64,000 nucleotides of DNA. It comes from Escherichia phage BEU50. Of this stretch, positions 1 through 28,073 are shown piece after piece. The DNA lies in the sequence record OM632671.1. The stretch is one strand, 5' to 3'. The stretch's first letter is position 1, and every line of letters starts with the position of its first letter. Under the pieces are notes generated by a model. The model was not told where the DNA came from. It searched no databases and worked only from the letters and a program-made list of their open reading frames with translations. Position numbers and translations under genes: made by a program.

Positions 1-54
1 CCCTTTTTGCTTTAGATTTTGGATGATAGAATACCTTCATAACGAGGAGACAAC

Positions 55-1875
55 ATGATTAAAAATGAAATTAAGGTATTGTCAGATGTAGAACATATTA
101 AGAAACGTAGTGGTATGTATATTGGTTCTTCTGCTAAAGAAGCACATGAGCGTTTTTTGTTTGGTAAATATCAACAAGTTGAATATGTTCCTGGTCTGGT
201 TAAATTAATCGATGAGATTATTGACAACTCGGTTGATGAAGCTATTCGTACATCATTTAAGTTTGCAAATAAAATTGATGTGCAAATTAAAAATAATCAA
301 GTTTCGGTGGAAGATAACGGACGTGGTATTCCTCAAGGTTTAGTTACCGACCAAACGGGTGAACAAATTCCTGGGCCTGTAGCAGCCTGGACTATTCCAA
401 AGGCTGGTGGTAACTTTGGTGATGACTCTGAACGCAAGACTGGTGGTATGAACGGTGTAGGGAGTAGTTTAACTAATATCTTCTCTACGTTGTTTACAGG
501 CATCACGTCAGATGGCGAAAATGAAATCACTGTTAACTGTTCAAACGGAATGGAAAACAAATCATGGTCTTCTAAGAAATCTAAAGGTAAAGGCACTAAA
601 GTAATCTTCACTCCTGATTTCTCTTCATTTGAAGAGCATAATTTATCTCAAATTTATTTAGATATTACTTTAGACAGACTTCAAACATTGGCAGTCGTTT
701 ATCCTGATATCAAGTTCACATTTAATGGTAAAAAGGTTGATGGTAATTTTAAACGATTTGCTAAACAATTTGGTGAAGATAACATCATTCAAGAAAATGA
801 TAAAGTCTCTATAGCATTCACAACATCACCAGATGGCTTCCGTCATTTAACTTATGTGAATAACATCCATACTAAAAATGGTGGCCATCATGTTGAATGT
901 GTAATGGATGATATCTGTGAACATCTTTTGCCGGGTATTAAAAAGAAATATAAGGGTATTGAAGTCACTAAAGCTCGTGTTAAAGAATGCCTCACAATGT
1001 TGATGTTTATTAGAGACATGAGCAACATGCGTTTTGATTCTCAGACTAAAGAACGTTTAACGTCAACGTATGGTGATATTCGTAATCATATCCAATTAGA
1101 TGCTAAGAAAATTGCTCAGGCACTTCTTAAAAACGAAGCCTTGATTATGCCTATTGTTGAAGCAGCATTAGCTCGTAAATTGGCAGCAGAAAAGGCTGCA
1201 GAAACTAAAGCAGCTAAAAAGGCGACTAAAGCTAAGGTTCATAAGCATATTAAAGCTAACCAATGTGGTAAAGATGCAGATACGACATTGTTTTTAACAG
1301 AAGGTGATTCGGCAATTGGTTATCTCATTGATGTTCGTGACCGTGAACTACACGGCGGATTCCCATTACGTGGTAAGGTGATGAATAGCTGGGGTATGTC
1401 ATATGCTGATATGATGAAGAACAAAGAGCTCTTTGATATCTGTGCTATCACAGGTCTTATTCTTGGTGAAAAGGCAGAGAATACGAACTATCGTAATATT
1501 GCAATTATGACCGATGCCGATCATGACGGTCTTGGAAGTATCTATCCAGCTTTGCTTGCTTTCTTTAGTAATTGGCCTGAATTGTTTGAACAAGGACGTA
1601 TTCGCTTTGTTAAAACGCCTGTAATTATTGCACAAATTGGCAAAACTCAAAAATGGTTTTATACTGTAGCTGAGTATGAAGAAGCTAAAGATACACTGCC
1701 TAAGCATAGTATTCGATACATCAAGGGATTGGGCTCACTTCAGCGAGATGAATATAAAGAAATGATTCAAAACCCTGTGTACGACGTAGTTAAACTTCCT
1801 GAAAATTGGAAAGAACTATTTGAAATGCTCATGGGTAACGACCCTGAACTCCGTAAAGATTGGATGCTAGGATAA
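55..1875 (+). CDS. 39: DNA topoisomerase II large subunit, unsplit 39/60 form
   Basis: 606 aa ORF with RBS GAGGAG; GyrB-like ATPase N-terminus, Toprim motifs EGDSA and DADHDG. Confidence 0.9.
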   Translation: MIKNEIKVLSDVEHIKKRSGMYIGSSAKEAHERFLFGKYQQVEYVPGLVKLIDEIIDNSVDEAIRTSFKFANKIDVQIKNNQVSVEDNGRGIPQGLVTDQTGEQIPGPVAAWTIPKAGGNFGDDSERKTGGMNGVGSSLTNIFSTLFTGITSDGENEITVNCSNGMENKSWSSKKSKGKGTKVIFTPDFSSFEEHNLSQIYLDITLDRLQTLAVVYPDIKFTFNGKKVDGNFKRFAKQFGEDNIIQENDKVSIAFTTSPDGFRHLTYVNNIHTKNGGHHVECVMDDICEHLLPGIKKKYKGIEVTKARVKECLTMLMFIRDMSNMRFDSQTKERLTSTYGDIRNHIQLDAKKIAQALLKNEALIMPIVEAALARKLAAEKAAETKAAKKATKAKVHKHIKANQCGKDADTTLFLTEGDSAIGYLIDVRDRELHGGFPLRGKVMNSWGMSYADMMKNKELFDICAITGLILGEKAENTNYRNIAIMTDADHDGLGSIYPALLAFFSNWPELFEQGRIRFVKTPVIIAQIGKTQKWFYTVAEYEEAKDTLPKHSIRYIKGLGSLQRDEYKEMIQNPVYDVVKLPENWKELFEMLMGNDPELRKDWMLG

Positions 1876-2672
1876 TGAATTATCGTAAAATTTATGATAA
1901 ACTTATCGCTGCGGCTAAAAACCGCAGCATTATTCCTAATTATACTGAGACACATCATATATTGCCAAAATCTATGGGTGGGAGTAATGATAAATCAAAT
2001 CTAGTTAAAATGACCCCTAGAGAGCATTTTATCGCCCATTTATTGCTTTATAAAATTCATAAGAACCGTTCTATGCTTATGGCTATTAGAGCTTTTTACA
2101 TGGGAGCTAGAAATTCTAGAGATTATGATTGGCTTAAACAAGAATTCTCTAAAGAGCACTCTAGATTTATGAAAGAATGGATTGCTAAAAACGGCAACCC
2201 ATTTAAAGGTAAAAAACATACTAAAGCAACAAGAGAATTAATGTCACATATTGCTTCACAACGTATAGGCGAATTAAATCCATTTTATGGTAAAACTCAT
2301 ACGCAAGAAGCAATAGATAAAATAATACAGGCCAACAAGTTATCTTGGGAGAATGGGCGAAAAGCACCTGTAAAAACAAAAGAACACCAGGATAAAATAA
2401 CTAAATCAAGAATGGAAACATTTAAAACAAAAGGATTTAAACCATACACTCCTAGGTCGGAAGAAACTAAAGCTAAGACTAGAGAGTTGTATAAATCTAA
2501 ATATGAAAGAAGGCCTATAAGAATCACAAGTGTAAAAACAGGTGAAACTATTGATTTTAACTATCTTTATGAATTAAGAGAGTATTTAGATATAGGGTCT
2601 TCTAATATATTGAAAGCATTAAATAATCCTAACAGAACCTGCAAAGGTTATAAAATGTGTTGGATGTCCTAA
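1875..2672 (+). CDS. HNH homing endonuclease (I-TevIII/MobA-like)
   Basis: ATG overlaps gene 39 stop (TAATG); N-terminus MNYRKI shared with intron ORF at 28074; HHILPKSMGG HNH motif. Confidence 0.75.
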   Translation: MNYRKIYDKLIAAAKNRSIIPNYTETHHILPKSMGGSNDKSNLVKMTPREHFIAHLLLYKIHKNRSMLMAIRAFYMGARNSRDYDWLKQEFSKEHSRFMKEWIAKNGNPFKGKKHTKATRELMSHIASQRIGELNPFYGKTHTQEAIDKIIQANKLSWENGRKAPVKTKEHQDKITKSRMETFKTKGFKPYTPRSEETKAKTRELYKSKYERRPIRITSVKTGETIDFNYLYELREYLDIGSSNILKALNNPNRTCKGYKMCWMS

Positions 2673-2696
2673 GCTCCTTCGGGAGCTTCATTTTAA
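2672..2696 (+). terminator. rho-independent terminator hairpin AGCTCC-TTCG-GGAGCT plus T-run
   Basis: perfect 6 bp stem, UUCG loop, followed by TCATTTT. Confidence 0.6.
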
Positions 2697-2714
2697 TTTT
2701 AATAAGGCTTAATT

Positions 2715-3815
2715 ATGAAAGTTATGTTTATCCCATCTCGTGCAGTCCCATTTAATCCTGACCGTGTACAAGGTGGTCTTGAAGCGGTTCATTTGAACGT
2801 GTTGAAATATTTAGTTTCTATCGGTGCCGATATTGATTATATCGGCTTTGATAATGACACGTTTGGTGACTGGAAAGTTACACACCATCCTGTTGGTCAT
2901 CTGACTAAATTCAGTCTAGGTATGAGTTATACTATGGCTCGTAAGATTGTTGAACTAGCCGGCATCCATGAATACGATTTTGTTGTTACTATGGAACCGA
3001 CTAAACTAACCGTTCAGGCAATTAAAGACGCAGGTCTCTCTAAAGTTCATAAGAATTTTATGGCAACACCATTTGAACCAGTATCTCGTGGCATTGTTCA
3101 AATTTGGGACCAGACTATTCAAATTCATAAGAATGGCGGTAAGAGTTATGCTCCTACTAAAGCCTTCCGTGAATTTGAACGCAAATATTGTTATATGACT
3201 TCAGGTCTGACTGACAAAATCGATTATGATTATTGGCGAGCAAATCCGTTGTTTGAAGCCGAAGATTATCCGGTTATTTGTTTGACTGAAAAGCCAGAAG
3301 TTCTCCCGGCAACTGATTTGATTATTAGTGCTCAACGTTATGACACTAAGATGCGTCGCACTGATGTTGCTCTTGAAGCAATTAAAGCACTAGGCGAAAA
3401 TGGTGTAGGATACTGTCCTAGTAAATGGGCACCACCAGCTAAATATCCTGTTATTATTGATGCTCCACACAGTGAAATCATGGAACGTCTTAAAACAGCT
3501 AAAGCACTTATTAATACGTGTCCTGACACAGGTACGGTAGAGAATAGTTCTATTGAAGCCATCTCTAAAGGTGTCCCTGTAATCCAGTTAGTTTTTAAGG
3601 ATTATCCTCATGCGACATTTGAATACGACCCAGATACTGTGCGTGTAGAAATTGATTCCTCTACTCCTAAGAAAGAAGTAGTTGCGCTTTACACAAAAGC
3701 TGTATTAGAATTCACTGACACATACGAAGCTCGAGTTAAACGTGCTGAAGCAGTATGGAAGAAGTATAATCGAGATGCAGTTGTTGCGATGTGGGATAAA
3801 ATCTTCACAGCGTAA
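2715..3815 (+). CDS. hypothetical protein, possible GT-B type glycosyltransferase
   Basis: 366 aa ORF; C-terminal E-x7-EA-x3-G-x-PVI pattern (ENSSIEAISKGVPVI); not at a position of any T4 gene I recognise. Confidence 0.5.
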   Translation: MKVMFIPSRAVPFNPDRVQGGLEAVHLNVLKYLVSIGADIDYIGFDNDTFGDWKVTHHPVGHLTKFSLGMSYTMARKIVELAGIHEYDFVVTMEPTKLTVQAIKDAGLSKVHKNFMATPFEPVSRGIVQIWDQTIQIHKNGGKSYAPTKAFREFERKYCYMTSGLTDKIDYDYWRANPLFEAEDYPVICLTEKPEVLPATDLIISAQRYDTKMRRTDVALEAIKALGENGVGYCPSKWAPPAKYPVIIDAPHSEIMERLKTAKALINTCPDTGTVENSSIEAISKGVPVIQLVFKDYPHATFEYDPDTVRVEIDSSTPKKEVVALYTKAVLEFTDTYEARVKRAEAVWKKYNRDAVVAMWDKIFTA

Positions 3816-3831
3816 ATCCTGAATAGCCTGA

Positions 3832-3882
3832 GGCACTATTACACATAAGATGATAGATTATATGGTCTTTAGTAATAGTGCC
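3832..3882 (+). other. long stem-loop (11 bp perfect stem, about 29 nt loop)
   Basis: GGCACTATTAC ... GTAATAGTGCC inverted repeat in the intergenic gap; no T-run. Confidence 0.4.
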
Positions 3883-3907
3883 CTAGGAATCTACTGAAGA
3901 GAATATT

Positions 3908-4108
3908 ATGAGAACATATAACGTGGACTTGGAACTTTTTGATAAAGCAGTGCTCCGGGAATTCCGGCTTATCCAAAGATTTTTTGATATCGAATCAGCA
4001 GAGTCCTTTAAAGAACGCTTTAAAGAAATTCGATATAAAATACAAACCGATACAGCTACTAAAGAAGAACTTCTTGAAGTAGCAGAAATTTTTAAACGTA
4101 ACTTGTGA
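3908..4108 (+). CDS. small hypothetical protein (rIIA.1 position)
   Basis: 66 aa ORF with ATG and upstream purine-rich RBS. Confidence 0.5.
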   Translation: MRTYNVDLELFDKAVLREFRLIQRFFDIESAESFKERFKEIRYKIQTDTATKEELLEVAEIFKRNL

Positions 4109-4120
4109 TGAGAGAAAAAC

Positions 4121-6178
4121 ATGATTATCGAAACGGCTAAAGAAACGATTATTGGTTCTGGTGGTAAGAGCACAGCATTCACTATTCAAGGCAATAGCAA
4201 AGTTTATAAGATTTTGTCTAATGACCTTTATACAAACAAAGAATTGGCTTGTGTACGTGAATTAATCACAAACTGTATCGATGGACAAATTCTTAATGGT
4301 TGCACTGATAAGTTTATTGTTCAGGCTCCAGGTCGTTTAGACCCACGTTTTGTAGTTCGAGACTTTGGTCCTGGTATGAGTGATTTCACCATTCGAGGTA
4401 ATGACGAAGAGCCAGGAATCTATAACTCATATTTTGCTTCAACTAAAACATCGAGTAATGATTTCATTGGTGGATTCGGACTCGGCTCTAAAGCTCCATT
4501 AGCATATACTGATACGTTTAACATTACTTCTTATCATAATGGTGAAGTTCGTGGTTATGTAATTTATCAAGATGACAGTGGTCCACAAATTAAGCCAACC
4601 TTTGTAGATAAGATGGGCCCTGATGACCGTACGGGTGTAGAAGTAGTTGTGCCTGTTAACCCGGAAGATTTTGAAAAGTTCGCATCTGAAATTGCGTATG
4701 TTATGCGTCCTCTCGGCGATATTGCAGAAGTTCGTGGTGTTAAAGATATCAAATACTTCCCGGAATTCGATGATGTTTATTTAGCCAAGGAAGCTCCATG
4801 GGGTGAACGTGGTAATATCATGGCTGTTTATGGTGGTATTGTATATCCAATCGGAAGTGTTATTAAAGAACAAACATGGATGATGACGCGATGCACTACA
4901 GCTTATATCAAATTCCCTATGGGTGAACTAGATGTAGCCCCGTCTCGTGAAGCATTGTCATTTGATAAACGTACAGTAGCAAATATTCATAAACGTGTTG
5001 CAGAAATTGATGCAAAATTATTTGCTGAAGATTCTAAGAAATGGATTGATTGTGAATATCCACGTCATGTATTCCGTGAAATCGATTCTCTTGGTTACTC
5101 TGCTCGTAAATACATGGAAAAAGCCGGTTCTAATATTGAATCACTGAAATATTCTAAAGAACAACTAACTTATTCTGAGTTGTACAAACGTTTTAAAATG
5201 GGACCTGAATGGTGCAACCTTGGCGTTGTATATGATATCGTTTCAGATCCACGACTTCGTCGTATTCGTGAAAGCGGAAGCTCGTCTGCAACTATTTCAA
5301 TTAATAGCCTGCTAGGTATTAGTCGTAAGCATATTGATATTGTTATTGACGATGTGAAAGGCCGCGTACCAATGATGCGTGCTCTGAACGATGCTTTGAC
5401 TTCCACCGATGCATCAACACTCGTTGATAAGGTTCCTTCCGGACGGGGTAGTAGCGTATTATTCATTAACCCGGAAGATGAAGTTGCAATGAAACTTCTG
5501 GAACGATTAAAGGTTATTTTCGCTGGTGATAGCCTTAAATTTTATAAGACCTCTGAAATTCTTGCATTAGTTAAACCATGGATTGAAGTTAAAGAACGTT
5601 CATCGCAGCCTCGTCCTAAATCCCCAAGTGCTCATCGGTTCTTTAAGAATGAAAACGATGTTTGGGTATCAGAAGATCTCTTTATTCCGGCCGGTAAAGC
5701 TGATGAGATTCAAGGTTATGTTGTAATTCGTAATCGTTCTAACGCTGAATGTCTTGACGCAGATAAAGGTTGGTTGAACTATGATTCTAATTTCTTGACT
5801 CGTATTGCTGATTTGTCAGGTATTAAAGAGTTCACTGTAGTCCGTCCACAGATTGCTAAGAAAGTTCGTAAACTTGGTGAAGTAGAATGCTTGTTCGAAA
5901 AATCAATTAATGACTATATTACGCTAATTGATAAAGTGGATTATGATGAGTATGTATCACCAAGTCGTAGAGCACAGCCTTATTTGAATCATATTACTCG
6001 TAACGAAGAGCTTAACTTCCTTAGTAAGTATTTTAGCTCTAAGAACAAAGAAATCAGTAAAGACTTTGCAAAACTCTCAACAGTAAATAATCGCTGGGGA
6101 TGGAATCGATTCGCAGGTGCTGATAACAGAGACCTGAACAGGAAGTTAGAATTGTGCTTAAAGAGGACTCTTTTGTAG
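4121..6178 (+). CDS. rIIA: rIIA membrane-associated protein, 3-prime end ends at a junction
   Basis: 685 aa; GHKL-like boxes ([19 protein letters not shown]); about 40 aa shorter than T4 rIIA as I recall it. Confidence 0.85.
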
Positions 6179-14735: not shown

Positions 14736-15209
14736 ATGTTATTGACTGGCAAATTATACAAAGAAGAAAAACAAAAATTTTATAATGTACAAAACGGTAA
14801 ATGCTTAATTTGCCAACGAGAACTAAATCCTGATGTTCAAGCTAATCACCTTGACCATGACCATGAATTAAATGGACCAAAAGCAGGAAAGGTACGTGGA
14901 TTGCTTTGTAATCTCTGCAATGCTGCAGAAGGTCAAATGAAGCACAAATTTAATCGTTCTGGCTTAAAGGGTCAAGGTGTTGATTATCTTGAATGGTTAG
15001 AAAATTTACTTACTTATTTAAAATCCGATTACACCCAAAATAATATTCACCCTAACTTTGTTGGAGATAAATCAAAGGAATTTTCTCGTTTAGGAAAAGA
15101 GGAAATGATGGCCGAGATGCTTCAAAGTGGATTTGAATATAATGAATCTGACACCAAAACACAATTAATAGCTTCATTTAAGAAGCAGCTTAGAAAGAGT
15201 TTAAAATGA
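14736..15209 (+). CDS. 49: endonuclease VII (Holliday junction resolvase)
   Basis: 157 aa; CLICQ…CNLC zinc site plus HLDHDHE. Confidence 0.85.
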   Translation: MLLTGKLYKEEKQKFYNVQNGKCLICQRELNPDVQANHLDHDHELNGPKAGKVRGLLCNLCNAAEGQMKHKFNRSGLKGQGVDYLEWLENLLTYLKSDYTQNNIHPNFVGDKSKEFSRLGKEEMMAEMLQSGFEYNESDTKTQLIASFKKQLRKSLK

Positions 15210-16027
15210 ATGTAGTATATAAACTATCATTTATTAATAGAATTAATGCTAAAACCCCACCATATTATTACATTGGAAGTAAAACCAATTGCACTTTTGA
15301 TGGAACGAATATTATTGATAAAAATGGTAAATTTTATTATTCGTCTTCGTCATCTTCTGAATTTCAAAAAGCCTTATTGAAAGAAACGCCGAAAGTTGAA
15401 ATATTATATTTTCAATTAGTCGGAGATGAACAAATAACTAGCATTGAAGCTGAATTTCAAAAGAATATAGAAAAAGATGTATGGAATAAAGAGTATTTTA
15501 ATTTAGCATATGCTGATGGCAAATTTACGACATATGGTATTTCTCCTTCTAAAGAAACTAGAGAAAAGCAATCAATAACCATGATTAAAAGAAATCGTAA
15601 TAAAGGCAAAAATCATGGATTTTATGGAAAGCATCATACTAATTTAGCTAGAAAGAAAATATCAGAAGCTTCTAAAAAATACTGGAAAGAAAATCCACAT
15701 CGTGGATTTTCGCATACAAAGGAAGCTAAAATTAAAATTGGAATTTCATCTTCTATCAGGCATAAAGGAAGTGGAAATCCGATGTATGGTGTAAAACCTT
15801 GGAAAACTCCGAGCGCAATTAAATCTGGTACTTGTATATTATGGTTAAAATACGCAGAAATTTTATATGATTATTTAAGTCCAGATTTTAAAAGTAAATC
15901 ATCTATTTTTGCGGATTTAAACTTACCGAAATTTAGAATTGATAATTTCATCAAAAGGTTTAAAATGGGTTGGAACCCATATTTAGACGAAGAATTTCAA
16001 AAGGATAAATTAGAATTATGTCTTTAG
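15206..16027 (+). CDS. GIY-YIG/NUMOD-type homing endonuclease-like protein (seg-like)
   Basis: 273 aa; VVYKLS…YYYIGSK and repeated GxxHT/NPMYG NUMOD-like motifs; inserted between 49 and nrdD. Confidence 0.6.
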   Translation: MNVVYKLSFINRINAKTPPYYYIGSKTNCTFDGTNIIDKNGKFYYSSSSSSEFQKALLKETPKVEILYFQLVGDEQITSIEAEFQKNIEKDVWNKEYFNLAYADGKFTTYGISPSKETREKQSITMIKRNRNKGKNHGFYGKHHTNLARKKISEASKKYWKENPHRGFSHTKEAKIKIGISSSIRHKGSGNPMYGVKPWKTPSAIKSGTCILWLKYAEILYDYLSPDFKSKSSIFADLNLPKFRIDNFIKRFKMGWNPYLDEEFQKDKLELCL

Positions 16028-17016
16028 AAAAAGATGTTTTAAATTTTATTTCAAATAAAGATAAAGAATTAAATACAGAAAACGCCAACAAAGATTCTCG
16101 CGTCTTTCCAACAAAAAGAGATTTAATGGCCGGTATTGTTTCTAAACATATCGCTTGTCGTATTCTTCCAAGTCATATTGTAAATGCCCATAATGTTGGA
16201 TTAATTCATTTTCATGATTTAGATTACAGTATATCATTGCCTTTTACTAATTGCTGTTTAGTAGATTTAAAAGGAATGCTTGAGAACGGGTTTAAGCTCG
16301 GTAATGCACAGATTGAAACTCCTAAATCAATCGGTGTTGCTACTGCAATTATGGCACAAATTACTGCACAGGTTGCTTCTCACCAATATGGCGGAACTAC
16401 ATTTGCTAATGTCGATAAAGTACTTTCTCCTTATGTTAAACGCACCTATGCAAAACATATCGAAGACGCAGAAAAATGGCAAATCGCCGATGCGTTAAAT
16501 TATGCTCAATCTAAAACAGAAAAAGACGTATACGATGCATTCCAAGCTTATGAATATGAAGTAAATACTCTCTTTAGTTCAAACGGACAGACTCCTTTTG
16601 TAACAATTACATTTGGTACAGGAACTGACTGGACTGAACGAATGATTCAGAAAGCAATTCTGAAAAATCGTATTAAAGGTCTTGGTCGTGATGGGATAAC
16701 TCCTATTTTCCCTAAGCTTGTTATGTTTGTTGAAGAAGGTGTTAATCTTTATAAAGACGATCCGAACTATGATATTAAGCAGCTTGCTCTAGAGTGTGCA
16801 AGCAAAAGAATGTATCCTGATATTATTTCAGCTAAGAACAATAAAGCTATCACTGGTTCATCTGTTCCTGTTTCTCCAATGGGTTGCCGTAGTTTCTTGG
16901 GCGTATGGAAAGATTCGACTGGTAATGAAATTCTTGATGGACGTAATAATCTTGGCGTTGTAACACTGAATCTTCCTCGCATCGCGTTAGATTCTTATAT
17001 TGGAACACAGTTCAAT
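16018..17016 (+). pseudogene. nrdD: anaerobic ribonucleotide reductase NrdD, 3-prime truncated (N-terminal ~333 codons only)
   Basis: NrdD-like sequence to …[17 protein letters not shown]; remainder of the ORF to 17103 is reverse complement of gene 37 start; no glycyl-radical C-terminus. Confidence 0.8.
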
Positions 17017-22969: not shown

Positions 22970-23887
22970 ATGGATTTAGAAATGATGTTGGATGAAGATT
23001 ACAAAGAAGGAATTTGCTTAATTGACTTTAGTCAGATTGCGCTTTCAACTGCTCTGGTAAACTTCCCAGATAAAGAAAAAATTAATTTATCAATGGTTCG
23101 TCATTTGATATTGAACTCAATTAAGTTTAATGTCAAAAAAGCAAAAACGCTTGGATACACTAAAATTGTGCTGTGTATTGATAACGCGAAATCTGGATAC
23201 TGGCGTCGTGATTTTGCTTATTATTATAAGAAAAACCGTGGAAAAGCACGAGAAGAATCTACTTGGGACTGGGAAGGTTATTTTGAATCCAGCCATAAAG
23301 TTATAGATGAATTGAAAGCTTATATGCCATACATTGTTATGGATATTGATAAGTATGAAGCAGATGACCACATTGCTGTTCTTGTTAAAAAGTTCTCTTT
23401 AGAAGGACATAAGATTTTAATCATTTCATCGGATGGTGACTTTACACAGCTTCACAAATATCCAAATGTTAAGCAATGGTCACCGATGCATAAGAAATGG
23501 GTTAAAATTAAAAGCGGTTCTGCTGAAATTGACTGTATGACTAAAATCCTTAAAGGCGACAAAAAGGATAACGTTGCTTCAGTTAAAGTACGATCTGACT
23601 TTTGGTTTACCAAAGTTGAAGGTGAACGGACTCCTTCAATGAAAACTTCAATCGTTGAAGCTATTGCTAATGATCGTGAGCAAGCTAAGGTGCTTCTCAC
23701 AGAATCTGAATATAATCGTTATAAAGAAAATTTAGTTCTAATTGATTTTGATTATATTCCTGATAATATTGCTTCAAACATTGTGAATTACTATAATTCA
23801 TATAAATTACCACCGCGTGGCAAAATTTATTCATATTTTGTAAAAGCGGGTCTTTCTAAATTAACTAATAGCATTAATGAATTTTGA
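22970..23887 (+). CDS. rnh: RNase H / 5-prime-3-prime exonuclease (FEN family)
   Basis: 305 aa from ATG 22970 (MDLEMML…) with RBS GAGG. Confidence 0.9.
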   Translation: MDLEMMLDEDYKEGICLIDFSQIALSTALVNFPDKEKINLSMVRHLILNSIKFNVKKAKTLGYTKIVLCIDNAKSGYWRRDFAYYYKKNRGKAREESTWDWEGYFESSHKVIDELKAYMPYIVMDIDKYEADDHIAVLVKKFSLEGHKILIISSDGDFTQLHKYPNVKQWSPMHKKWVKIKSGSAEIDCMTKILKGDKKDNVASVKVRSDFWFTKVEGERTPSMKTSIVEAIANDREQAKVLLTESEYNRYKENLVLIDFDYIPDNIASNIVNYYNSYKLPPRGKIYSYFVKAGLSKLTNSINEF

Positions 23888-23895
23888 GGTGAATA

Positions 23896-24165
23896 ATGGC
23901 TAAAAAAGAAATGGTTGAATTTGATGAAGCTATCCATGGCGAAGACTTGGCTAAATTTATTAAAGAAGCATCTGATCATAAACTGAAAATTTCCGGTTAT
24001 AATGAACTGATTAAAGATATTCGAATTCGTGCTAAAGATGAACTTGGCGTTGATGGTAAGATGTTTAATCGTCTATTAGCTTTGTATCATAAAGATAACC
24101 GTGATGTGTTTGAAGCTGAAACTGAAGAGGTAGTTGAACTTTATGACACAGTTTTCTCTAAATGA
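23896..24165 (+). CDS. dsbA: dsDNA-binding protein DsbA
   Basis: 89 aa, position between rnh and 33. Confidence 0.8.
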   Translation: MAKKEMVEFDEAIHGEDLAKFIKEASDHKLKISGYNELIKDIRIRAKDELGVDGKMFNRLLALYHKDNRDVFEAETEEVVELYDTVFSK

Positions 24166-24481
24166 CATTCGTCCGGTCGATGAGACCGGTCTTTCAGAAA
24201 AAGAACTTTCAATTAAGAAAGAAAAGGATGAAATAGCAAAGCTTCTTGATCGTCAAGAAAATGGATTTATTATTGAAAAAATGGTAGAAGAGTTTGGAAT
24301 GAGTTATCTTGAAGCTACAACAGCATTCTTAGAAGAAAATTCTATTCCTGAAACTCAATTTGCTAAATTTATTCCTTCGGGTATAATTGAAAAAATTCAG
24401 TCAGAAGCTATTGACGAAAATCTTTTACGTCCTTCTGTTGTTCGTTGTGAAAAAACTAATACATTAGATTTTCTACTATGA
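24143..24481 (+). CDS. 33: late transcription accessory protein gp33
   Basis: 112 aa from ATG 24143 (MTQFSLNDI…). Confidence 0.85.
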   Translation: MTQFSLNDIRPVDETGLSEKELSIKKEKDEIAKLLDRQENGFIIEKMVEEFGMSYLEATTAFLEENSIPETQFAKFIPSGIIEKIQSEAIDENLLRPSVVRCEKTNTLDFLL

Positions 24482-24537
24482 TTAAACTCCGCATGCCTGC
24501 TGGTGGTGAAAGATACATTGATGGTAAATCAGTTTAG
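24478..24537 (+). pseudogene. 59: helicase loader gene 59, 19-codon N-terminal stub
   Basis: [19 protein letters not shown] then TAG; downstream sequence is not gene 59. Confidence 0.6.
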
Positions 24538-24620
24538 TGAGTATTTTGATAATAAAATTTCTACAGTTAAAACTTCTTCTGATTGTTACTATGATATTAC
24601 TGTTTTGACGGAAAAACAAT

Positions 24621-24947
24621 ATGTTGAATTATCACCGCGCGGGCCGTCTATGCCGGGTAGTGAATAAATATAAATCCGACTTTGATGTTAATATTCACCG
24701 TGGTACATTTTGGGGAAATTACGTCGGTAAAGATGCTGGCAGCCGGGAGGCTGCCATTGAATTATTCAAAAAAGATTTTATACGTCGAATTAAATCCGGA
24801 GAAATAACTAAAGCACATTTAGAGCCTTTACGTGGAATGAGGCTAGGATGCACATGTAAACCAAAGCCGTGTCATGGTGATATAATAGCTCATATAGTTA
24901 ACCGACTGTTTAAAGACGATTTTCAAGTTGAGGACTTATGCAATTAA
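24621..24947 (+). CDS. hypothetical protein with C-terminal C-x-C…CHGD motif
   Basis: 108 aa ORF upstream of nrdA; GC-rich 5-prime patch; true start uncertain. Confidence 0.45.
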
Positions 24948-27202
24948 TTAATGTTATCAAAAGTAGTGGTGTTTCTCAGAGCTTTGACCCGCAAAAAATT
25001 ATTAAAGTTTTATCTTGGGCAGCTGAAGGAACATCAGTAGATCCTTATGAATTATATGAAAATATTAAATCTTATCTCCGTGATGGAATGACAACTGATG
25101 ATATTCAGACTATTGTCATTAAGGCCGCTGCGAATTCTATTTCGGTTGAAGAGCCTGATTATCAATATGTAGCTGCACGCTGTTTAATGTTCGCTCTTCG
25201 TAAGCATGTTTATGGGCAGTATGAACCACGTTCATTTATTGACCATATTTCTTACTGCGTAAATGAAGGTAAATATGACCCTGAATTATTGTCAAAATAT
25301 TCAGCAGAAGAAATTACATTTTTAGAATCAAAAATTAAGCACGAGCGGGATATGGAATTTACTTATTCCGGGGCGATGCAATTAAAAGAAAAATATCTAG
25401 TCAAAGATAAAACCACCGGTCAAATTTATGAAACTCCGCAGTTTGCATTTATGACTATTGGAATGGCATTGCATCAAGATGAACCTGTTGATAGACTAAA
25501 ACACGTTATCCGTTTTTATGAAGCAGTATCCACTCGACAGATTTCATTGCCAACTCCTATTATGGCTGGTTGCCGTACTCCGACTCGACAGTTTAGTTCA
25601 TGTGTTGTTATTGAGGCAGGAGATTCATTGAAGTCTATCAATAAGGCTTCTGCTTCAATTGTTGAATATATCTCTAAACGCGCTGGAATTGGTATTAACG
25701 TTGGTATGATTCGTGCCGAAGGTTCTAAGATTGGCATGGGTGAAGTACGCCATACTGGTGTTATTCCTTTTTGGAAACATTTTCAGACTGCAGTTAAATC
25801 ATGTTCACAGGGTGGAATTCGTGGCGGCGCTGCTACTGCTTATTATCCTATTTGGCATTTGGAAGTTGAAAATCTTCTCGTTTTGAAAAATAACAAAGGC
25901 GTAGAAGAAAACCGCATTCGTCATATGGATTATGGTGTTCAACTGAATGATTTGATGATGGAACGTTTTGGAAAGAACGATTACATTACTTTGTTCAGTC
26001 CCCATGAAATGGGTGGAGAGCTTTATTATTCTTATTTTAAAGACCAAGACCGTTTCCGTGAATTATACGAAGCAGCAGAAAAAGACCCTAATATTCGTAA
26101 AAAGCGTATTAAAGCCCGTGAACTATTTGAATTGCTCATGACTGAACGTTCAGGAACAGCAAGGATTTATGTACAGTTCATTGATAATACGAATAACTAT
26201 ACTCCGTTTATTCGTGAAAAGGCACCTATTCGTCAGAGTAACTTGTGCTGTGAAATTGCTATTCCAACAAATGATGTGAATAGTCCTGATGCTGAAATTG
26301 GATTGTGTACTCTCTCTGCATTCGTACTAGATAATTTTGACTGGCAAGACCAAGATAAAATTAATGAATTGGCAGAAGTTCAAGTTCGTGCTCTTGATAA
26401 TCTTTTGGATTACCAAGGATATCCAGTTCCTGAAGCAGAAAAAGCTAAAAAGCGTCGTAACCTTGGCGTAGGTGTTACCAACTATGCAGCTTGGCTGGCA
26501 AGTAACTTTGCTTCTTATGAAGATGCTAACGATTTAACACATGAACTATTTGAGAGATTACAGTATGGACTCATTAAAGCATCCATTAAGCTCGCCAAAG
26601 AAAAAGGACCTTGCGAATATTATTCAGACACTCGTTGGTCTCGAGGCGAATTACCTATCGACTGGTACAATAAAAAGATTGACCAAATCGCAGCTCCAAA
26701 ATACGTTTGTGACTGGTCGTCGCTGCGGGAAGACCTCAAGCTCTTTGGCATCCGTAATAGCACATTATCAGCACTTATGCCATGTGAGTCATCTTCCCAA
26801 GTTTCTAACAGTACAAACGGTATCGAGCCTCCACGTGGACCGGTAAGTGTTAAAGAATCAAAAGAGGGTTCCTTTAATCAAGTCGTGCCCAATATTGAGC
26901 ATAACATAGACCTCTATGATTATACGTGGAAATTAGCTAAGAAAGGTAATAAACCTTATCTTACGCAGGTAGCTATTATGCTGAAATGGGTATGTCAATC
27001 AGCTTCAGCGAATACATACTATGACCCGCAAATTTTTCCAAAAGGAAAGGTTCCAATGTCAATAATGATTGATGACATGCTATATGGATGGTATTATGGC
27101 ATTAAAAATTTCTATTATCATAATACCCGTGATGGTTCTGGTACTGATGATTATGAAATAGAAACTCCAAAAGCTGAAGATTGTTCATCCTGTAAATTAT
27201 GA
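24938..27202 (+). CDS. nrdA: ribonucleotide reductase large subunit
   Basis: 754 aa; N-terminal ATP-cone; class I RNR alpha. Confidence 0.9.
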   Translation: MQLINVIKSSGVSQSFDPQKIIKVLSWAAEGTSVDPYELYENIKSYLRDGMTTDDIQTIVIKAAANSISVEEPDYQYVAARCLMFALRKHVYGQYEPRSFIDHISYCVNEGKYDPELLSKYSAEEITFLESKIKHERDMEFTYSGAMQLKEKYLVKDKTTGQIYETPQFAFMTIGMALHQDEPVDRLKHVIRFYEAVSTRQISLPTPIMAGCRTPTRQFSSCVVIEAGDSLKSINKASASIVEYISKRAGIGINVGMIRAEGSKIGMGEVRHTGVIPFWKHFQTAVKSCSQGGIRGGAATAYYPIWHLEVENLLVLKNNKGVEENRIRHMDYGVQLNDLMMERFGKNDYITLFSPHEMGGELYYSYFKDQDRFRELYEAAEKDPNIRKKRIKARELFELLMTERSGTARIYVQFIDNTNNYTPFIREKAPIRQSNLCCEIAIPTNDVNSPDAEIGLCTLSAFVLDNFDWQDQDKINELAEVQVRALDNLLDYQGYPVPEAEKAKKRRNLGVGVTNYAAWLASNFASYEDANDLTHELFERLQYGLIKASIKLAKEKGPCEYYSDTRWSRGELPIDWYNKKIDQIAAPKYVCDWSSLREDLKLFGIRNSTLSALMPCESSSQVSNSTNGIEPPRGPVSVKESKEGSFNQVVPNIEHNIDLYDYTWKLAKKGNKPYLTQVAIMLKWVCQSASANTYYDPQIFPKGKVPMSIMIDDMLYGWYYGIKNFYYHNTRDGSGTDDYEIETPKAEDCSSCKL

Positions 27203-27253
27203 TATAATTTGACTCATGGACGAGTCACTATCTATTAACTAAGTGGAAAATTT

Positions 27254-27915
27254 ATGAGCACAGTTTTTAATACAAACCCAGTTGATGTTTTAAAAGAACC
27301 TATGTTTTTTGGTTCAGGTCTTGGTATTGCGCGTTATGATATTCAACGCCATAAAGTTTTTGAAGATTTGACCGAAAAGCAATTGTCATTTTTCTGGCGT
27401 CCTGAAGAAGTAAACTTAATGATGGATGCTGCACAGTTTAATAAGCTTCCTCAGTATCAGCAAAATATTTTTACTAATAACCTGAAGTATCAATCACTTT
27501 TGGATAGCATTCAGGGTCGTGCGCCATCTGCTGTACTTATGTCATTAATTTCAGACCCGAGTCTTGATACATGGGTTGCTACATGGACTTTTAGTGAAAC
27601 TATTCACAGCCGTTCATATACACATATCATGCGAAATCTTTATACTGATCCATCGAAGGTATTTGATGAGATTGTATTAGATGAAGCTATTATGAAACGT
27701 GCTGAATCTATCGGTCGCTATTATGATGATGTTCTGATTAAAACCCGTGAATGGGAAAATGCTAAAGAATTTGTAGAACTAGCTAAAGAATCTCCTGATG
27801 CTGTCTTTCGTTTAAACCGAGCTATTAAACAAGAAGCCGAAGCTAAACGTGCTTTAATGAAATCTCTTTACCTCTGTTTGCACGTTATTAATGCCTTAGA
27901 AGCATTCGTTTTTAT
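27254..27915 (+). CDS. nrdB: ribonucleotide reductase small subunit, exon 1 (3-prime boundary approximate)
   Basis: NrdB-like sequence to …LYLCLHVINALEA; frame then runs into intron. Confidence 0.75.
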
Positions 27916-28038
27916 GTATCTTTTGCGTAAAATGCGCCTTTAAACGGTAACGTTTATCGAAAACTCCTTTAATTGCTGGAAAGTCCTTTATAGGAAAACT
28001 AGCAGCCAAGGTTTTGCTTGCACCTTTAATTAGTATAA

Positions 28039-28046
28039 TATAAATA
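28039..28046 (+). promoter_or_regulatory. late promoter TATAAATA inside intron
   Basis: 28 nt upstream of the intron ORF start. Confidence 0.5.
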
Positions 28047-28073
28047 TGGTTATACTTTTAAGAGGATGCACAA

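Follow-up and report, generated by a model that had tools for sequence, protein, structure and literature searches.

In phage T4, the gene nrdA.1 (coordinates 142671-142997, protein NP_049846.1, T4p235) lies between nrdA.2, which starts at 142951, and nrdA, which ends at 142680. It overlaps nrdA by 10 nt and nrdA.2 by 47 nt. The same layout is found in phage AR1, where the same 327-nt ORF is annotated as nrdA.1, with nrdA.2 and td before it and nrdA after it. In the literature, we found no experiment on NrdA.1 or on any other protein of its family, DUF4326, and mentions of nrdA.1 were incidental only. A published prediction sees the family as cysteine-dependent enzymes of the rhodanese/phosphatase type, with ADP-ribose or nucleotide sugar-phosphates as substrates (PMC9503650, PMC7824862).

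The window analyzed here (the whole stretch of DNA, 64,000 nt in length) contains a 108-aa ORF that shares start, stop and the length of 108 codons with T4 nrdA.1 and, as in T4, overlaps nrdA by 10 nt and the nrdA.2 reading frame by 47 nt. The encoded protein is identical to T4 NrdA.1 at 104 of 108 positions (96%) over the full length and without gaps. All four substitutions fall within residues 2-8, the proteins starting with MLNYHRAG in the window and with MTNYSSVG in T4. We found 22 public contigs, complete phages among them, that encode an identical 108-aa protein. Six of these contexts were inspected, five of which reach far enough upstream and show the order 59-32-frd.3...frd-td-nrdA.2 (87 aa)-nrdA.1 (108 aa)-nrdA (754 aa); the sixth ends inside this run. 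We conclude that the 108-aa ORF is the already known nrdA.1, which is conserved as an early gene in the nucleotide-metabolism cluster of T-even phages, and that it occupies its usual position. The preliminary description of the locus, which was made from the sequence alone, had implied that the ORF is new and had named a clear orthologue with identical gene boundaries in intact phages as the observation that would speak against it. This is what we found, since the orthologue has identical boundaries in T4 and in many intact phages. Orthologues upstream of nrdA, for which it had advised a search in T-even genomes, are present in T4, in AR1 and in 27 T4-like loci of IMG/VR.

In all 27 of these loci, nrdA.1 stands immediately 5' of nrdA, even where frd and td are missing, and the usual gene order is td-(nrdA.2)-nrdA.1-nrdA. 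One departure is a distant T4-like contig (L028, IMGVR_UViG_3300007790_000242), in which rnh-33-59-32 lead directly to nrdA.1-nrdA; neither frd nor td was detected in between. This contig represents natural variation 5' of nrdA.1, yet it has kept gene 59 and gene 32. The neighborhood in the window is T-even as well and comprises gene 34 (minus strand), rnh, dsbA, 33, the gene 59 stub, nrdA.1 and nrdA. Downstream, nrdA and nrdB follow as in T4, and upstream the synteny is only partial. A GAGGA at 24930-24934, inside nrdA.1, precedes the nrdA start codon (Table 1). The overlap of the two genes together with this GAGGA is an arrangement compatible with translational coupling. A scan for promoters and terminators gave consensus-level matches only, which carry no evidential weight.

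Table 1. Features of the nrdA.1 locus and mid-gene joins of the window (positions in the 64,000-nt window)
Feature	Position	Strand	Basis
rIIA/vs.6 join	6157/6158		Mapping onto T4
mobD.1/nrdC.3 join	~12574		Mapping onto T4
nrdD/gene 37 (codon ~44) join, opposite strands	17016/17017		Mapping onto T4
Gene 59 stub, 18 sense codons, then TAG stop formed across the junction	24480..24536	+	Alignment with the gene 59 start of AR1 and T4
54-aa chimeric ORF, GTG start	24503..24667	+	ORF list; crosses the junction into the nrdA.2 tail
Blunt junction between codon 19 of gene 59 and codon 45 of nrdA.2	24536..24537	.	Intact genomes break here
nrdA.2 3' remnant, residues 46-87 and stop, no start of its own	24537..24667	+	Pfam DUF5496, T4 NrdA.2 match
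nrdA.1, intact 108-aa DUF4326 protein	24621..24947	+	ORF list, T4 match, Pfam
Dual-coding overlap of nrdA.2 3' end and nrdA.1 5' end, 47 nt	24621..24667	+	T4 equivalent 142951-142997
GC-rich patch CACCGCGCGGGCCGTCTATGCCGGG	24633-24657	+	Top G+C 25-mer of the 64-kb window
DUF4326 signature loop (C77, C79, P81, C84, H85, G86, D87), residues 75-89	24843..24887	+	61-member alignment, AF2
nrdA, 754 aa	24938..27202	+	ORF list; ATG 10 nt inside nrdA.1, also in T4 and AR1

The upstream synteny is partial because td and the 5' half of nrdA.2 were lost at the junction, 24536/24537. This is the exact position at which T4 and each of the six intact contexts break. In comparison to T4, about 6,058 bp are missing, namely codons 20-217 of gene 59, segG, gene 32, frd.3 to frd, td with its intron and I-TevI, and codons 1-44 of nrdA.2. 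The genes lost here (the rest of gene 59, gene 32, td and the others) are absent elsewhere in the window. The join, at which no microhomology was found, terminates the gene 59 frame with the TAG stop. For both flanks the closest phage is Shigella phage SHFML-26 (98.8% and 98.4%), in which about 6.4 kb separate the two. Collinearity with T4 (97.8% identity over 2662 nt) and with intact phages extends from 24537 onward. A 34-mer spanning the junction was absent from IMG/VR, the JGI metagenomes and the GTDB genomes, no INPHARED record spans this point, and a 501-bp query across it had no match in E. coli genomes. The stub and the junction noted earlier thus exist, with 24537 as the first base after the discontinuity relative to all intact T-even genomes. 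The word "repaired", by which the junction had been characterized, found no backing, as a blunt join without microhomology gives no sign of repair.

The first coding sequence after the junction is what is left of nrdA.2. This remnant matches positions 45-87 of the 87-position Pfam profile DUF5496 (PF17600) with an E-value of 5.5e-24, and 39 of its 42 residues (93%) are identical to residues 46-87 of T4 NrdA.2. The copy in the window differs from the T4 gene in lacking the N-terminal 44 codons and the start, and is therefore truncated. The 54-aa ORF that runs through the junction begins with 12 codons that read the gene 59 stub in another frame, and homologues were found for residues 13-54 only. 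It is probably a mechanical chimera and not a gene. The earlier observation that the 108-aa ORF overlaps this "orphan tail ORF" in another frame is correct and applies to the first 47 nt of nrdA.1.

The preliminary description had further pointed to an unusually GC-rich run inside the start of the 108-aa ORF, which we can confirm. The patch, CACCGCGCGGGCCGTCTATGCCGGG, covers codons 5-13 of nrdA.1 and contains 20 G or C among its 25 nt (80%, against 37% for the window overall). It is the sole 25-mer in the 64 kb to reach this value, and the longest pure-G/C run of the window (12 nt, 24635-24646) lies inside it. The enrichment exceeds what chance would give. In the nrdA.1 frame the patch reads HRAGRLCR(V) and in the nrdA.2 frame SPRGPSMPG. 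The 16 codons of the overlap have a GC content of 50% and a GC3 of 56%, compared to 37.6% and 27% in the remaining part of nrdA.1. The patch is nearly identical in the intact relatives AR1, L002, L003 and L004, and the substitutions found in AR1 and L002 leave the residues of NrdA.2 unchanged (synonymous) and alter those of NrdA.1 (non-synonymous). The overlap of T4 is slightly less GC-rich than that of the window, through the window's four substitutions in residues 2-8. Residues 1-10 of NrdA.1 are variable in the alignment, and many homologues are devoid of them and begin just before C11. We conclude that the patch is a native overlap, in which a conserved Pro/Arg/Gly-rich C-terminus of NrdA.2 and a variable N-terminal extension of NrdA.1 are written in two frames. 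Its G+C content stays high because the same bases encode both proteins.

Other origins of the patch were considered and discarded. A scar of the junction is out, as the patch is kept in intact relatives and lies 96 nt downstream of the junction, and not immediately after the gene 59 stub as had been stated. A foreign or horizontally acquired patch is out as well, since the composition outside the 16-codon overlap is typical of T-even phages and relatives share the patch. An RNA element is out, the predicted fold being no better than that of shuffled sequences (z = 0.21); Rfam gave no match at E ≤ 0.1 over 23500-29800. The broader proposal that a repair event at the junction gave rise to the ORF, the patch or the Cys/His motif, as a chimeric or foreign insert, can appeal to the real discontinuity close by. 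Against it stand the collinearity with T4 and intact phages from 24537 on and the presence of both patch and ORF in intact genomes, which reduce its probability to almost nothing. The patch that had been tied to the junction is native sequence. The splice left nrdA.1 intact and created neither the ORF, the patch nor the motif. Altogether, we read the locus as an ordinary nrdA.1 with a native GC patch, preceded by a tail that is the nrdA.2 remnant of a splice of about 6 kb, and we assign this reading a probability of roughly 0.9.

The junction upstream of nrdA.1 is not isolated. When mapped onto T4, the first 25 kb of the window contain at least four blunt mid-gene joins (Table 1), and a 33-mer across the nrdD/gene 37 join was absent from IMG/VR. 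In T4 coordinates, the blocks run 5342 to 1272, 63828 to 57624, 49045 to 44354, 156676 to 149140 and 143081 to 105242, an order that the circular T4 map could not yield through deletions alone. The window lacks gene 32, the whole of gene 38 and most of gene 37. In T4, gene 32 is indispensable for replication and gene 37 for adsorption. Because the block order does not derive from deletions alone and these indispensable genes are missing, the window is most likely a composite that arose from assembly, scaffolding, or in-silico or engineered splicing. That the multi-block splices represent a real, helper-dependent defective T-even genome is much less likely, and we regard it as very improbable. 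Features near 6157, 12574, 17016 and 24536 should be read with this patchwork in mind; nrdA.1 itself is unaffected.

The similarity of the window to T4 is 68-80% in the outer parts (1-5032 and ~28600-64000) and 91-98% in the middle blocks (6158-28146). JM17, KAW3E185 and a record named 'Mosigvirus mar005p1' match the outer parts at 97-98% identity. Since the similarity to T4 shifts sharply between outer and middle parts, the window mixes two T-even lineages.

nrdB (27254-29521) appears split, with ORFs of 229 aa and 177 aa flanking a full-length 269-aa HNH endonuclease ORF (28074..28883). The arrangement is similar to that of the T4 nrdB intron, whose I-TevIII is annotated as defective, whereas the endonuclease ORF of the window is full-length. 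The same nrdB layout (225, 269 and 159 aa) was seen in two further contigs, L084 and L086, and Rfam returned no group I intron match at nrdB at E ≤ 0.1. nrdD (15206-17016) is intron-less, T4 45849-44815 (the I-TevII intron) having no counterpart, and a 273-aa homing-endonuclease ORF stands free between gene 49 and nrdD. The topoisomerase gene 39 (55-1875) forms a single 606-aa ORF. Its match leaps from T4 3911 (gene 39) to T4 2794 (gene 60), a position immediately beyond the 50-nt bypass element; it therefore appears to have neither the 39/60 split of T4, nor the mobA insertion, nor the gap for translational bypass.

NrdA.1 is a single-domain protein that matches the Pfam family DUF4326 (PF14216) with 78.7 bits (cutoff 25, E-value 5.5e-22) over profile positions 1-81 of 82, and phrog_464 with an E-value of 7.6e-49. 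NCBIfam and PADLOC contained no model matching the protein. The family is very large; a profile search yielded more than 10,000 representative clusters at 50% identity. In an alignment of 61 diverse members, N33, L70, C77, C79, C84 and H85 are invariant, and V14, N15, D22, I25, R27, G32, P34, L75, G76, P81, G86 and D87 are conserved in at least 90%. Judged from this alignment, C-x-C-x4-C-H-G-D is the invariant core and signature of DUF4326, and NrdA.1 of the window carries all signature residues (C77, C79, P81, C84, H85, G86 and D87). The T-even subgroup differs from DUF4326/PHROG 464 at large in a variable N-terminal extension of about 10 residues and in an additional invariant cysteine, C11, which is not conserved outside T4-like phages. 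T-even proteins also have Y34, in contrast to the near-invariant P34 of the family. The compact Cys/His domain of the preliminary description is therefore sound as the signature of DUF4326, with a likely link to nucleotides, and it loses its novelty as part of a known Pfam family. The motif does not end the ORF, as had been written; it is formed by residues 75-89 and followed by 19 more.

The AF2 model of NrdA.1, a protein of about 100 aa with few strands, has a pLDDT of 89.2 and a pTM of 0.82. At the level of secondary structure, it shows a strand (74-77), a loop with the Cys motif (78-84) and a helix (85-96). In the model, residues 75-89 are predicted to form an active-site or metal-binding loop. 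The succession of strand, Cys loop and helix N-terminus, which serves as anion-binding cradle in rhodaneses and phosphatases, thus appears to be present at the secondary-structure level of the prediction. Foldseek against BFVD matched DUF4326 proteins throughout, from phages, haloviruses, pandoraviruses, pithoviruses and marseilleviruses. Against the PDB, the best Foldseek match had an E-value of 0.84, TM-scores did not exceed 0.27, and no rhodanese, PTP/DSP or RapZ was among the 34 matches. Sequence and profile searches of the PDB returned no usable relatives. A thioredoxin-glutathione reductase from the PDB (E-value 0.14) was dismissed as a chance match, only the variable N-terminus being aligned. 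The profile PF22751 (DUF488-N3a) was matched weakly by 13 of the 61 DUF4326 members, always over the Cys loop and the following helix; the best match (E-value 0.0029, 18.3 bits) lies below the Pfam cutoff of 27 bits.

Further indications come from domain fusions. In a set of 41 multi-domain relatives, the partners fused to DUF4326 include mSLOG (7), YAcAr-SLOG (6), NADAR (4), DarT1-NADAR (1), DprA-like SLOG (4), Macro (1), TIR (1) and RNase H (1) domains. These partners are the same NAD+/ADPr-related set that the Aravind group reported, and our searches reproduce it independently. The fusions to SLOG, NADAR, Macro and TIR domains, together with the weak links to DUF488, would fit the published enzyme prediction. 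Burroughs and Aravind are said to have described, in 2023, a RapZ-C-DUF488-DUF4326 clade within the rhodanese/phosphatase superfamily. The placement of the weak DUF488-N3a matches over the Cys loop and helix would fit this clade.

We tentatively propose, somewhat short of considering it probable, that NrdA.1 is a small Cys-dependent enzyme that processes sugar-phosphates and belongs to the rhodanese/phosphatase-like RapZ-C-DUF488-DUF4326 assemblage. The strand-Cys loop-helix element would bind a phosphate carried by a ribose and process it, the substrate could be an ADP-ribose/NAD+-derived metabolite or a nucleotide, and the protein would be co-expressed with ribonucleotide reductase. The tyrosine at position 34 of T-even proteins, the sub-threshold DUF488 matches and the empty PDB searches count against this proposal. 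Three cysteines and one histidine could equally form a structural zinc site, and NrdA.1 would then be a small Cys3His protein with a structural or regulatory role, such as a module that binds nucleic acid or protein. The invariance of C77, C79, C84 and H85 in the 61 members, the additional invariant C11 of the T4-like subgroup and the small size with few strands agree with such a module. However, C11 is not conserved beyond T4-like phages, the conserved N15, D22, R27, G32-N33-P34 and D87 resemble a substrate pocket and not a zinc knuckle, and the repeated fusion to enzymatic NAD+/ADPr-processing domains suggests the role of a catalytic partner. We consider the zinc module unlikely.

The genomic position could also suggest a dedicated accessory of the phage's aerobic ribonucleotide reductase, for example a reductant working through thiols, or a factor for the assembly or regulation of NrdA in the dNTP-synthetase complex. 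The conserved cysteines, the 10-nt overlap with nrdA, the internal GAGGA and the place directly 5' of nrdA in 27 T4-like loci, even in L028 without frd and td, would be in line with this role. Elsewhere the association is rare: a nrdA-like gene was found within 4 kb in only 1 of 53 viral DUF4326 loci that are not T4-like. The linkage of nrdA.1 with ribonucleotide reductase therefore looks like inherited synteny, as it is limited to T4-like phages. Moreover, DUF4326 is fused to NAD+/ADPr and SLOG domains and not to components of ribonucleotide reductase, and the match to phrog_24867, labeled "NrdA-like" (E-value 1.4e-6), most likely reflects an annotation carried over from the adjacent gene. 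An accessory of this kind is thus improbable. Returning to the Cys-dependent enzyme, a more specific version, which we regard as doubtful, would have NrdA.1 remove or transfer a ribose-linked phosphate on an NAD+- or ADP-ribose-derived molecule, co-translated with ribonucleotide reductase by T-even phages as a countermeasure against host immunity based on NAD+ or as a safeguard of the dNTP supply. If true, this would give a function to a DUF family of more than 10,000 clusters, which occurs in phages, haloviruses and giant viruses and has links to conflict systems involving NAD+/ADP-ribose. Among the members of DUF4326, T4 nrdA.1 is the most tractable and a convenient entry for biochemistry.

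Compared to the T4 locus, the window lacks td and the 5' half of nrdA.2 upstream of nrdA.1. Compared to the rhodanese/phosphatase superfamily, DUF4326 is much smaller, has few strands and shows no match to a solved rhodanese, PTP or RapZ structure. What NrdA.1 and DUF4326 have in common with this superfamily is the predicted succession of strand, Cys loop and helix, and the recurrent similarity to the DUF488-N3a profile, weak and below threshold, may point in the same direction. The loops themselves differ, C-x5-R being that of the phosphatases and C-x-C-x4-C-H-G-D that of DUF4326.
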